Source: Escherichia coli (GTDB lineage: Bacteria > Pseudomonadota > Gammaproteobacteria > Enterobacterales > Enterobacteriaceae). From it: 64,000 nt of DNA. The first letter of the stretch is position 1; each line of letters opens with the position of its first letter. The notes under the pieces were generated by a model. It was not told the origin of the DNA. It worked only from the letters and a program-made list of their open reading frames with translations, and did not search any database. The stretch lies in NCBI RefSeq assembly GCF_041248615.1, contig NZ_CP158426.1, one strand, 5' to 3'. Shown one piece after another: positions 7,677 to 49,423 of this stretch. The translations under genes and the position numbers were made by a program.

Positions 7677-7892
7677 TGTTTAATCCTTTTGGTTTAAACC
7701 AGATGAAGCATCTTACGCTTACGCCAAAAAAGAAAGCAATTAACGGTGTATGACTTTGCAGATAATTGTGACAAAGCTCTCTATTGACGTAATCACAGAC
7801 TTATAAGGGAGATACTCGCATTGGTGTGCGCTCACGACAGGTAAAAAAAAACCTGCCAGCGATGGCAGGTTTTTTATAACTAAAAAACGAAA

Positions 7893-9716
7893 TTAATCGT
7901 CTTTCGGTGCGCGGTTGGCGCGACGACGATCGTTTTCCGTCAGGTGACGTTTACGAATACGGATAGAGGTCGGAGTCACTTCTACCAGTTCGTCATCATC
8001 GATGAACTCCAGAGCTTGTTCCAGAGTCATGCGGATAGGCGGAACCAGAACAACGGCTTCGTCAGTACCGGAAGCACGCATGTTGGTCAGTTTCTTACCG
8101 GTCAGGCAGTTTACAGTCAGGTCGTTAGAGCGGCTATGAATACCGATAATCTGACCTTCGTAAACTTCTGCACCGTGACCGAGGAACAGCTTACCGCGAT
8201 CCTGCAGACCGAACAGCGCGAACGCTACCGCTTTACCCTGACCGTTAGAGATCAGTACGCCGTTCTGACGCTGACCCACTTCACCCGGACGTACGTCGTC
8301 GTAGTGGCTGAAGGTGGAGTACAGCAGACCCGTACCAGAAGTCATGGTCATGAACTCAGAACGGAAGCCAATCAGACCACGGCTTGGGATCACGTAGTCG
8401 AGACGTACGCGGCCTTTACCGTCTGGATTCATGTTTTTCAGGTCGCCTTTACGTTCGCCCAGCGCCTGCATCACAGAACCCTGATGCTGTTCTTCAACGT
8501 CCAGCGTCACGTTTTCATACGGCTCTTGTTTACGACCGTCGATTTCACGGAAGATTACTTTCGGACGGGATACCGCCAGTTCGAAACCTTCACGACGCAT
8601 GTTTTCGATAAGAACAGACAGGTGCAGTTCGCCACGACCAGAAACGCGGAACGCATCGGCGTCTTCGGTTTCTTCTACGCGCAGCGCAACGTTGTGTACC
8701 AGTTCTTTGTTCAGACGATCCAGGATCTGACGAGACGTTACGAACTTACCTTCTTTACCGCAGAACGGCGAGGTGTTAACGCAAAAGAACATAGAAACGG
8801 TCGGCTCATCAACGGAGAGTGCCGGCAGCGCTTCAACGTTTTGCGTGTCGCAAACGGTGTCAGAAATGTTCAGTTCGCCCAGGCCCGTGATCGCCACGAT
8901 ATCGCCAGCTTCCGCCAGATCGGTTTCAATACGTTCCAGACCGAGGTGGCCCAGCACTTTACCGACTTTCGCGTTACGGGTTTTGCCTTCGCTATCGATG
9001 ATAGTGACCTGCTGGTTCGGCTTCACTTTACCGCGCTTGATGCGGCCAATGCCGATAACGCCAACATAGCTGTTGTAATCGAGCTGAGAAATCTGCATCT
9101 GGAACGGACCGTCAAGGTCAACGTCCGGCGCAGGAACGTGGTCAACAATCGCCTGATACAGCGGGGTCATGTCTTCCGCCATATCTTCGTGGTCCAGACC
9201 CGCGATACCGTTCAGCGCAGAAGCGTAAACGATCGGGAAGTCCAGCTGCTCGTCGGTCGCGTCGAGGTTAACGAACAGATCGAATACCTGATCCACAACC
9301 CAATCAGGACGCGCGCCAGGGCGGTCAACTTTGTTGATAACAACAATCGGCTTCAGGCCGTAAGCAAACGCTTTTTTGGTTACGAAGCGCGTTTGCGGCA
9401 TCGGGCCGTCAAATGCGTCAACCACCAGCAGCACTGAGTCTACCATGGACATTACACGTTCAACTTCACCACCGAAGTCGGCGTGCCCCGGGGTATCAAC
9501 GATGTTGATACGGTAATCATTCCATTTGATAGCGGTGTTTTTCGCGAGGATGGTAATCCCACGCTCTTTCTCCAAATCGTTGGAGTCCATCACGCGCTCT
9601 TGGGTTTCGGCACGAGAGTCGAACGTACCGGATTGTTGGAGCAGCTTGTCTACCAGGGTGGTTTTACCATGGTCTACGTGCGCGATGATGGCGATATTAC
9701 GCAATTTTTCGATCAC
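7893..9716 (-). CDS. typA: ribosome-associated translational GTPase BipA/TypA
   Basis: 607-aa ORF; GTPase motifs AHVDHGKTT and DTPGH; EF-G-like architecture. Confidence 0.95.
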
Positions 9717-9867
9717 AACTTTGCCTCAGGCATTAGAAATAGCGCGTTATTGTACACGGATTAATCGCACTACAAAACAGGATCACAAACATCCTCCGCA
9801 AACAAGTATTGCAGAGTCCCTTTGTGATCGCTTTCACGGAGCATAAAAAGGGTTATCCAAAGGTCAT

Positions 9868-9916
9868 TGCACCAATATGGTGCTTAATGTTTCCATTGAA
9901 GCACTATATTGGTGCA
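9868..9916. promoter_or_regulatory. NtrC (NRI) enhancer binding sites upstream of glnA
   Basis: tgcaccaatatggtgc (9868-9883) and gcactatattggtgca (9901-9916) match the TGCACC-N-GGTGCA dyad. Confidence 0.6.
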
Positions 9917-15927: not shown

Positions 15928-16115
15928 GCTCACTCCTTCCGATGGCGTCTCTGGCGGCTACGGCGTACCGGCGGATGCCCGTTTCGGGTCATCAGCCGGT
16001 TGCGCAGCCACTTTTGTCGCCGCGACAACCGCTGTAGTTTAACGAATAACCACACCAGATAACATATAACCGGAAGGGTTATCAGCAGAACGGGAAGGCC
16101 CACGGCGGCAATCCG

Positions 16116-16625
16116 TTAGTTGCCCCGCAGCAGACGCATCATATCTTCTTGCTTCTCGTCTTCTTCCTCTTCTTCGTCATCGTCATAAGAGAGGCCGAGT
16201 TTCTGCATCAACTCATCAATACGATCCAGTTTGGCATCCACCCAGGATTGCTCTTCGGCGCTCAGGGTTTCGCCTGCTTCCAGACGTTCCAGCAGCGCAT
16301 CCAGACGCTCATCCGTTTCCAGTAACTCCAACTCCGCCTGCGGTGAAAGCATAGGTTTCTCACTCTTCGGTTTGTGCTGTTTGGTGACTTTTTCAGTCAC
16401 GCCCAATGGAATAGGGGTTTTACTGCCAATACGTGGATCTTTCGGTGCGTTCTGGCCTTTGCTGCCTGACGTGGTGTTACCGCCCGCTGCGCGGCTGCCC
16501 GGCGCATGACCACGACGTTTTTTCTGACGCTTACGGTCACGAGCTTCCTGATCCAGCTCCTCGCGTGTTTTTCGACGCGCTTTTGCATGACCTTTGCTGC
16601 GTGAGTTTGAAGATGATGGTTTCAT
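16116..16625 (-). CDS. yihI: Der GTPase-activating protein YihI
   Basis: ORF track 16116..16688; ATG (cat 16623-16625) gives [19 protein letters not shown]; acidic C-terminus. Confidence 0.88.
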
Positions 16626-16691
16626 AATGGTTCGTCTTTTAGCCGTTTTATTCAGTATAGATTTGCGGCGGAATCTAACAGAAAGCAAGCA

Positions 16692-16936
16692 AAGAAAAAA
16701 GGCGACAGATTACTCTGTCGCCTTTTTTCCTGACTCATAACCCTTAACGGGTCTTACAATCCTTGCAGGCCGCCAACACACCCTGTTTTTCCATTAGCCG
16801 GAACAATCCGTGTTGATTCCATTTCCGTTTAATTACGTCTCCGGACGTTTGTCTTCCTGACAATCCTCTGTCTTCGCCTCCTGGCGCTCCTGACCCTCAT
16901 CCTGAGTCATTGTTCCTGTTAGCGTCCTCGCTCTAT
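16692..16936 (-). ncRNA. csrC: CsrC small RNA (CsrA-sequestering)
   Basis: minus-strand 5' ATAGAGCGAGGACGC at 16936; multiple GGA motifs; terminator hairpin ggcgacagagtaatctgtcgcc plus T-run at 16693-16722; lies between yihI and engB as in K-12. Confidence 0.8.
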
Positions 16937-17206
16937 GGGTGCTACTTTACGCCTTTGCTTTAAACAAACAATCAACCGCCATCAGTATTTGCACATTTTC
17001 AGAGTTTTATATAAAAGCAATTAACTGATTTATATAGCTTATTTGACATGCATCGCAGAATTTTCTCTGCTATTTCGCATAAAGACTATCGGCAATGTCT
17101 CACAAAGCGTATGGCTTTTACTTACAACGCTCACGCCGAAAAATCCGCCTTTTATTATGGTTCAGGTATAATCGCCGCAAAGCTTTGACTGACGGAGACG
17201 ACCGCT

Positions 17207-17839
17207 TTGACTAATTTGAATTATCAACAGACGCATTTTGTGATGAGTGCGCCTGATATTCGCCACCTACCTTCCGATACCGGAATTGAAGTGGCTTTTG
17301 CAGGCCGTTCCAACGCAGGTAAATCCAGCGCGCTGAACACGCTGACTAACCAGAAAAGCCTGGCGCGGACCTCAAAAACCCCAGGGCGCACCCAGCTTAT
17401 CAACCTGTTTGAAGTGGCTGACGGCAAGCGTCTGGTTGACCTGCCCGGCTATGGCTACGCGGAAGTCCCGGAAGAGATGAAGCGCAAATGGCAACGCGCG
17501 CTCGGCGAATACCTCGAAAAACGTCAGAGCCTGCAAGGTCTGGTGGTGCTAATGGATATTCGCCATCCGCTGAAAGATTTGGATCAGCAGATGATTGAGT
17601 GGGCGGTAGACAGCAATATCGCCGTGCTGGTGCTGCTGACCAAAGCGGACAAACTGGCAAGCGGCGCACGTAAAGCGCAATTGAATATGGTGCGTGAAGC
17701 GGTGCTGGCGTTTAACGGTGATGTGCAGGTTGAAACGTTCTCCTCACTGAAGAAACAAGGCGTGGACAAGCTGCGGCAGAAACTGGATACCTGGTTTAGC
17801 GAGATGCAGCCTGTAGAAGAAACGCAGGACGGCGAATAA
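17207..17839 (+). CDS. engB: ribosome biogenesis GTP-binding protein EngB (YihA)
   Basis: 210-aa ORF, TTG start at 17207; G1 motif GRSNAGKSS. Confidence 0.92.
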
Positions 17840-17963: not shown

Positions 17964-18073
17964 ATAAAAAACGCCCCAGTCATTACTGACTGGGGCGGCT
18001 AAAATATTCAGCCAAATCCGATTACGTGAAGTAAAAGGTCTGAAAGATAGAACATCTTACCTCTGTACCCTAC
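17964..18073 (-). ncRNA. spf: Spot 42 small RNA
   Basis: minus strand reads GTAGGGTACAGAGGTAAGATGTTCTATCTTTCAGACC...; terminator hairpin gccccagtcattactgactggggc plus U-run (17966-17996); immediately downstream of polA. Confidence 0.9.
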
Positions 18074-18220
18074 GCGACTAACTTTACTCTTTTTTGTTCA
18101 GTTCAGAAAGCATTTTTTGTAATTTTTTTTCAGTTGTTGCATAGGAATTTCTAATAGCCATCACAAAACGTGACAGCTTATGTTGCTTACTTACGAAAAA
18201 AGGGCATGTTCAGGCGAATC

Positions 18221-28601: not shown

Positions 28602-28721
28602 ATGCCTGGCAGTTCCCTACTCTCGCATGGGGAGACCCCACACTACCATCGGCGCTACGGCGTTTCACTTCTGAGTTCGGCATGGGGTCAGGTGGGACCA
28701 CCGCGCTAAGGCCGCCAGGCA
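28602..28721 (-). rRNA. rrfA: 5S ribosomal RNA
   Basis: reverse complement reads TGCCTGGCGGCC...GGGAACTGCCAGGCAT, 120 nt. Confidence 0.97.
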
Positions 28722-28814
28722 AATTCTGTTTTATCAGACCGCTTCTGCGTTCTGATTTAATCTGTATCAGGCTGAAAATCTTTCTCTCATCCGCCAAAAC
28801 ATCTTCGGCGTTGT

Positions 28815-31729
<2,915 letters not shown>

Positions 31730-31902
31730 AAGATGTTTCTTTCGATTCATCATCGTGTTGCGAAAATTTGAGAGACTCACGAACAACTTTCATTGTTCAG
31801 TGTTTCAATTTTCAGCTTGATCCAGATTTTTAAAGAGCAAAACTTCGCAGTGAACCTTTGCAGGTACACTCTGAAGTATTTTTTATTTAATCACTACAGA
31901 GA

Positions 31903-31978
31903 TGGTGGAGCTATGCGGGATCGAACCGCAGACCTCCTGCGTGCAAAGCAGGCGCTCTCCCAGCTGAGCTATAGCCCC
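31903..31978 (-). tRNA. alaT: tRNA-Ala (UGC), rrn spacer tRNA
   Basis: reverse complement GGGGCTATAGCTCAGCTGGGAGAGCGCCTGCTTTGCACGCAGGAGGTCTGCGGTTCGATCCCGCATAGCTCCACCA. Confidence 0.97.
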
Positions 31979-32020
31979 ATAACATGTAGTTAAAACCTCT
32001 TCAAATTTGCGGTGCAAATT

Positions 32021-32097
<77 letters not shown>

Positions 32098-32165
32098 GTA
32101 GAGGTTTTACTGCTCATTTTCATCAGACAATCTGTGTGAGCACTGCAAAGAACGCTTCTTTAAGG

Positions 32166-33707
<1,542 letters not shown>

Positions 33708-47180: not shown

Positions 47181-49423
<2,243 letters not shown>

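Follow-up and report, generated by a model that had tools for sequence, protein, structure and literature searches.

The csrC small RNA gene between engB and yihI in an Escherichia coli chromosome segment, and the conserved DNA beside its terminator

CsrC and its closest described relatives

The gene csrC of Escherichia coli, which encodes the CsrA-sequestering small RNA CsrC, has been characterised since 2003. The K-12 gene (b4457; SraK/RyiB; Rfam family RF00084) is annotated at 4049059..4049303; published K-12 RNA-seq data place the ends of csrC at 4049059..4049300 (241 nt), and an assembled K-12 transcript of the gene ends at 4049307. In Shigella, csrC is listed at 245 nt between yihI and yihA and has been checked by Northern blot, and in the literature its location is always near yihA/engB and yihI. 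According to the Csr literature, the synthesis of CsrC is under the control of BarA-UvrY, PhoP and CRP. The closest described counterpart is CsrB, which is grouped with RsmB, RsmY and RsmZ in clan CL00106. Like CsrC, CsrB presents GGA repeats in loops that titrate CsrA/RsmA, and BarA-UvrY activates it from an inverted repeat located far upstream (PMC4682653). CsrB differs in its locus, which adjoins syd, in its greater length (360 nt), and in requiring IHF if UvrY is to bind and activate it optimally, a requirement that csrC does not share (PMC4682653). Two regulator sites of E. coli csrC have been placed in published work: a UvrY footprint on the inverted repeat, together with the spacing of its half-site (Zere et al. 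2015, PMC4682653), and a PhoP box at K-12 4,050,995-4,051,012 (PMC11230228).

Two further kinds of element are relevant to the DNA downstream of the gene. Bidirectional intrinsic terminators are found between convergent genes and consist of a hairpin that is flanked by an A-tract and a U-tract and forms on both strands. The combination of an extended -10 element with a GC-rich discriminator is a layout seen in promoters under stringent control, rrnB P1 being an example.

The window, by which we mean the whole stretch of 64,000 nucleotides of E. coli DNA that was analysed, contains a csrC locus that has the flanking genes, orientation, UvrY and PhoP sites and terminator of the K-12 locus, and whose RNA differs from that of K-12 by a single base (nt 144, A in K-12 and U in the window). 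We consider the minus strand of 16692..16936 to be csrC with a probability of about 97%. The identification made in the preliminary description is therefore correct, and it is an ordinary one that concerns an already known gene: the finding of csrC is of little importance on its own, the window copy departing from K-12 by one apparently neutral base.

The csrC gene in the window

The gene, its neighbours and its upstream control sites are as follows.

16692..16936, minus strand: csrC as annotated in K-12 (245 nt), with its 5' end ATAGAGCG at 16936
16793, minus strand: sole difference from K-12 within csrC (nt 144; A in K-12, U in the window), immediately 5' to the GGA at nt 145
16730..16927, minus strand: 14 GGA motifs, presumed CsrA-binding sites (from counts, shuffles and structural context)
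16116..16625, minus strand: yihI, Der GTPase-activating protein, downstream neighbour (ATG at 16625..16623; ORF and RefSeq annotation)
17207..17839, plus strand: engB/yihA, divergent upstream neighbour (TTG start at 17207; ORF and RefSeq annotation)
16944..16949, minus strand: candidate csrC -10 hexamer TAAAGT, at -13..-8 (read from the sequence)
16960..16977, minus strand: PhoP box of csrC (GGTTGATTGTTTGTTTAA), at -41..-24 (coordinates of PMC11230228 mapped onto the window)
17087..17104, minus strand: UvrY-binding inverted repeat TGTGAGACATTGCCGATA, 18 nt, at -168..-151 (exact match to the footprinted sequence)
17126..17121, minus strand: TGTAAG half-site, 16 bp upstream of the UvrY repeat, spaced as published (PMC4682653)

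From 16936, the minus-strand sequence reads ATAGAGCGAGGACGC. An Rfam scan of the whole window matched CsrC (RF00084) at 16683..16936 on the minus strand over model positions 1-255, with a covariance-model score of 277.9 bits against a gathering score of 61 (E = 1.2e-87), and CsrC was kept as the best match there after competition within clan CL00106. Alignment with the csrC of K-12 BW25113 gave identity at 244 of 245 nt. These are the two checks on sequence that the preliminary description had proposed, and both agree with its reading. It had also named the lack of a transcript of this size as a ground for abandoning that reading; the published K-12 RNA-seq and Shigella Northern data give 241-245 nt, and the RNA-seq 3' end maps to window position 16695, which is the final U in the U6 tract of the terminator. 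An additional cross-check of 16936 as the annotated +1 is offered by a Term-seq entry at K-12 4,051,237, which the consulted part of the published lists places 110 nt ahead of the yihI ORF and whose context fits CsrC nt 202. None of the tests that were run produced evidence against the identity with CsrC.

As in K-12, csrC sits between engB/yihA and yihI, on the strand of yihI. The preliminary description had estimated the interval between the two genes at about 580 bp and free of ORFs; the region counts 581 bp and holds only mechanical ORFs of at most 48 aa. A 701-nt region differs from K-12 BW25113 at three positions, one of them in csrC, and is found in 5425 of 5426 complete E. coli genomes, several of them 100% identical to it. 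The difference in csrC appears to be a common, neutral polymorphism, since the 61-mer with the window allele (U at nt 144) occurs exactly in 2515 of 5422 E. coli genomes (~46% of complete genomes) and the corresponding column varies freely between genera in the homologue alignment.

The arrangement extends well beyond E. coli. In a sample of 80 engB loci drawn from a genome collection, one per species, nhmmer found csrC between engB and yihI, upstream of engB, in 78; of the two loci without it, one has only 44 nt of sequence upstream of engB and the other is missing yihI too. The locus of Enterobacteriaceae bacterium LSJC7, in which spf and engB are present and neither csrC nor yihI lies within 2.5 kb upstream of engB, breaks the otherwise constant engB-csrC-yihI arrangement. 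In the Rfam scans, CsrC reached at least the gathering score in 16 of the 20 genera covered, extending to Atlantibacter and one Pantoea; three Pantoea loci scored below it. Pantoea is the furthest taxon examined, because the search with the YihI protein, whose homologues carry PF04220, gave only close Enterobacteriaceae relatives among the 120 matches listed, and no more distant YihI loci. The spf gene for Spot 42 is located on the minus strand of the window at 17965..18083, roughly 1 kb away from csrC, and adjoins engB in each of the 20 genera that were scanned. In Salmonella, Spot 42 is reported to increase the level of CsrC.

The preliminary description noted many GGA motifs and suggested counting those in loops. 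There are 14 GGA in the 245 nt of csrC, compared with 8.9 +/- 2.0 in dinucleotide shuffles, of which 27 out of 2000 reach 14, and with a background of 3.3 +/- 1.9 per 245 nt in the window; the count is the highest on either strand of the whole 64 kb. The first G of each motif lies on the minus strand at window positions 16927, 16916, 16902, 16890, 16881, 16866, 16857, 16842, 16826, 16820, 16809, 16792, 16762 and 16730, which correspond to CsrC nt 10, 21, 35, 47, 56, 71, 80, 95, 111, 117, 128, 145, 175 and 207. When the Rfam consensus structure is projected onto the window sequence, six motifs fall in hairpin loops (nt 10, 35, 56, 71, 95 and 175) and five in single-stranded linkers (nt 21, 47, 80, 111 and 117), so that 11 of the 14 are in loops or linkers; the remaining ones are located at a bulge (nt 128), in a weakly supported stem (nt 145) and at the base of the terminator (nt 207).

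The RNA folds at -87.4 kcal/mol (z = -6.8), and its structure is also visible in a MAFFT alignment of 79 distinct csrC homologues, which carry 10-17 GGA each (median 14). In these homologues, 83.4% of the cells in Rfam helices are paired, against 40-48% when the partners are slid by one to three columns, and 31 pairs are changed on both sides, against 17-24 for slid partners. The weakly supported stem is helix 7 (UCC135-137 with GGA145-147, window 16790..16802), in which no double changes occur and pairing reaches 66%. It should be noted that the GGA at nt 145 is kept in 75 of the 79 homologues; given a helix that is without compensatory change and incompletely paired around a near-invariant motif, this GGA is more likely to be unpaired.

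Upstream of the gene, the site predicted from the published BarA-UvrY footprint is present in the window as an exact copy of the far-upstream inverted repeat, with its half-site at the expected spacing. The candidate csrC -10 hexamer is not accompanied by a good -35, and a scan for two-hexamer sigma-70 consensus promoters returned no sites in 16100..17300, which is as expected for an activator-dependent promoter. Such a promoter would make CsrC, with phospho-UvrY acting at -168..-151 and PhoP at -41..-24, and the RNA would fold into a row of short hairpins that display GGA in loops and linkers. CsrA dimers would bind paired GGA sites, and CsrC would in this way titrate CsrA off its mRNA targets, its own transcription ending at the strong intrinsic terminator. 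Membership by sequence and structure, synteny, the placement of the GGA motifs, the regulator sites and the terminator are established for the csrC of the window itself; CsrA binding, expression and decay of CsrC in the window strain would be as the literature describes for CsrC.

The terminator

16692..16731, minus strand: intrinsic terminator, a 40-nt element (from a terminator scan and folding)

The preliminary description spoke of a strong 3' hairpin with a U-run, and this is what the element contains: an A6 tract (16728..16723), a GC-rich stem of 9 bp formed by GGCGACAGA and UCUGUCGCC around a GUAA loop (16722..16701), and a U6 run (16700..16695). The folding energy of the 40-nt element is -27.2 kcal/mol for the minus strand and -25.0 for the plus strand; that of the core hairpin is -15.9 and -15.0 kcal/mol, respectively. 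The plus strand of the terminator even matches CsrC model positions 200-244 at 42.9 bits. Owing to the symmetry of the A6 and U6 tracts, which is conserved from Escherichia to Pantoea, the hairpin can form on either strand. Helix 10, the A:U extension of the stem, is paired at 97.3% in the 79 sequences, with six pairs changed on both sides.

The description of the terminator as bidirectional-looking holds for the sequence, which is symmetric and folds on both strands, and termination in both directions is at most putative. Unlike the bidirectional terminators found between convergent genes, the csrC terminator has no convergent gene and no known plus-strand transcript: the ORF list holds no plus-strand gene that ends at it, and the upstream DNA on that strand is yihI antisense. 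The part of the Term-seq lists consulted contains no opposite-strand 3' end at this position, and the csrC terminator is likewise not represented in it by a 3' end. For csrC it gives a single 3' end, an internal one at nt 202 (window 16735), just past the ACCCGUUAAGGGU hairpin; one may speculate that a paired csrC 3' end escapes the Term-seq method. Rather than serving a convergent gene, the A-tract probably pairs with the U-tail, which would make the terminator stronger and the 3' end fully paired. Such an end would be appropriate for an RNA whose degradation begins at internal sites and not at the 3' terminus.

The conserved flank and the candidate yihI promoters

The distance between the annotated 3' end of csrC (16692) and the yihI ATG is 66 nt, one less than the 67 bp given in the preliminary description, and in most species it is about 53-62 nt when measured from model position 254. 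In 77 species, no part of the intergenic region is better conserved than the stretch made up of the terminator and the following ~45 nt (16726..16647). In seven of its eight 10-nt bins the majority fraction is 0.89-0.99, and it is 0.84 in the bin of the hairpin loop; for comparison, it is 0.75 in the CsrC body, 0.59-0.70 in the upstream intergenic DNA and 0.89 in the first 20 codons of engB. The conserved features of the flank, taken from alignments of 73-77 species, are listed below.

16651..16684, minus strand: near-invariant block 3' of the terminator, putative yihI promoter(s)
16680..16672, minus strand: extended -10 element TGnTAGATT of a candidate yihI promoter, its TG closing a TTTCTG run
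16671..16665, minus strand: GC-rich discriminator CCGCCGC, which varies at three columns
16664..16663, minus strand: invariant AA (77-species alignment)
16660..16654, minus strand: second candidate -10, CTATACT, with C at -13, 17 bp downstream of the first

Within the block, T16684 is present in 72 of 77 species, TTCTG (16683..16679) is fully invariant and TAGATT (16677..16672) is invariant in 76-77 of 77, with position 16678 varying between them (C in 68, T in 5, A in 4). CTGnTAGATT at 16681..16672 fits the test for an extended -10 element, having TG at -15/-14, A at -11 and T at -7, and only the 'n' varies. On the evidence of these alignments, we infer that the block contains an extended -10 promoter with a GC-rich discriminator and an A start, followed by a second -10, and that these would be the promoter or promoters of yihI. 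The predicted starts lie near window positions 16664 and 16647 (K-12 U00096.3 4,051,308 and 4,051,325). The loci of Atlantibacter and two Pantoea carry an additional 65-90 nt directly behind ...CAATTCT, so that the left half of the block has remained by the terminator and TATACT and the leader have remained by yihI; that both halves were kept when parted fits two separable promoters. Neither candidate has a good -35, and as the two-hexamer scan found no sites, the proposed promoters are based on conservation and on the features of extended -10 elements. No mapped yihI start was found in five supplementary data sets of published studies, and the promoter of yihI seems not to have been mapped so far. 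The spacer shows no sign of RNA structure, its minus-strand fold having z = -0.47 and no covarying columns being seen.

The layout has the TGn and -10, the CCGCCGC and the invariant A residues in common with promoters of the rrnB P1 type, and differs from them in a -10 that matches at four of six positions (TAGATT) and in the second -10 17 bp downstream. A link of the yihI promoter to control by ppGpp or sigma-S could be envisaged. The claim that the 3' flank alone is free to serve as the yihI promoter region agrees with the very high conservation and the promoter-like motifs found there; the flank would not strictly be the only DNA involved, because RNA polymerase at the distal candidate would cover the U-tract of the terminator. 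This conserved block next to the terminator is a modest by-product of the analysis, and it provides two precise candidate starts for yihI.

Other sigma factors and operators were compared with the block by eye through their consensus sequences (sigma-E, sigma-32, sigma-54, sigma-28; FNR, CRP, ArcA, LexA, TrpR), which is not a formal test, and none fitted. An N-terminal extension of YihI was considered and rejected: spacer lengths vary by non-multiples of three, and substitutions occur at codon positions 1 and 2. The yihI frame is open as far as a TTG at 16688, which makes an ORF of 190 aa (16116..16688, minus strand); YihI versions of 194-197 aa occur in some GenBank records of E. coli.

Two other readings concern the nature of the transcribed region itself. 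The RefSeq/PGAP records of BW25113 and of a strain identical to the window carry no csrC feature; they carry instead, on the minus strand at 16744..16910, a pseudo-CDS described as 'hypothetical protein; frameshifted; internal stop', a label that also stands under every other genome match listed, and taken at face value the region would be a decayed protein-coding gene. This reading is effectively refuted and we give it practically no credence: there is no intact ORF longer than 48 aa, a 39-aa ORF inside csrC is absent from a collection of 15 billion proteins, and the full-length match to an RNA family, the covariation of its helices and the conservation of GGA fit an RNA gene. The pseudo-CDS is an annotation artefact, and since it takes the place of csrC in the records inspected, scans based on annotation will miss the gene. 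It could also be argued that yihI has a long structured 5' leader, co-transcribed with it by read-through, and that this leader, and not an independent small RNA, is what the transcript mainly represents, given that csrC and yihI are on the same strand, 66 nt apart, at a distance held in most species. We regard this as extremely improbable in view of the very strong terminator (-27.2 kcal/mol with U6), at which the published assemblies stop csrC (4049300 and 4049307 in K-12 v2 coordinates), and of the conserved promoter-like block between the terminator and yihI, both halves of which persist when inserts of 65-90 nt separate them in Atlantibacter and two Pantoea.

The remaining readings concern the block, which is partly palindromic (TAGATT-N8-AATCTA), and both of the following are less likely than a yihI promoter. 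A plus-strand -10 at 16658..16663 could direct a ~60-nt RNA that starts near 16670 and is ended by the terminator acting in the other direction, which would explain the conserved A-tract together with the conserved block. The plus-strand hairpin (-25.0 kcal/mol) is followed by T6, conservation ends near 16650, just upstream of the hexamer, and the hexamer itself (TAGATT here, TAGAAT in most species) shows the usual -10 pattern, with positions 1, 2, 4 and 6 invariant and positions 3 and 5 variable. This hexamer, however, has no -35 and no TG extension, the -35 region being poorly conserved (0.68-0.71); its T1 is lost in Atlantibacter and one Pantoea, Citrobacter species have a 5-nt deletion in the body of the supposed RNA, and the consulted part of the Term-seq lists, from which the csrC terminator end is likewise missing, has no matching 3' end. 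The conservation of these columns is also accounted for by elements oriented towards yihI. We consider such an RNA very improbable. The block might, on the other hand, chiefly be an operator for a DNA-binding protein that controls yihI and not a core promoter. The inverted repeat is perfect over 6 bp in E. coli and matches at five of six positions in most species, and the conservation of the block is above what is usual for a bare promoter; the repeat nevertheless is not known to match any operator consensus, the sole variable base in CTGnTAGATT is exactly the 'n' of an extended -10, and the TATACT half parts from the other half in the insertion lineages with both persisting, which fits two promoters better than one dimer site. 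An operator is therefore unlikely, although it deserves some weight.

A yihI promoter or promoters remains our preferred reading of the block, and a further question is whether the terminator and the ~45-nt near-invariant block constitute one compact terminator-promoter module instead of two independent signals, an idea that we hold to be rather improbable. If it were true, polymerase released at the csrC terminator might be handed to the yihI promoter 14 nt downstream, or might block it, which would connect the output of the Csr system with the brake that acts on ribosome assembly through the Der GTPase. The unusual conservation and the arrangement of the motifs speak neither for nor against such coupling. 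In another version, an antisense RNA of ~60 nt would be encoded by the plus strand of the block and would end at this hairpin, used in the other direction.

17167..17172, plus strand: candidate engB promoter, an invariant TATAAT followed by CGCCGC (from the conservation table)

Upstream of engB, the TATAAT and CGCCGC (17167..17176, plus strand) have the same -10/discriminator layout as the yihI block. It is suggested that yihI and engB, both of which are ribosome-assembly genes, share a layout typical of growth-rate-controlled promoters. Elsewhere in the window, further Rfam matches on the minus strand at 28604..33707, 48818..49069, 9798..9905 and 7840..7908 represent a complete rrn operon with two tRNAs and StyR-44, and the small RNAs Erse, ES222 and STnc370; the rrn operon and the small-RNA matches fit an ordinary segment of the E. 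coli chromosome.
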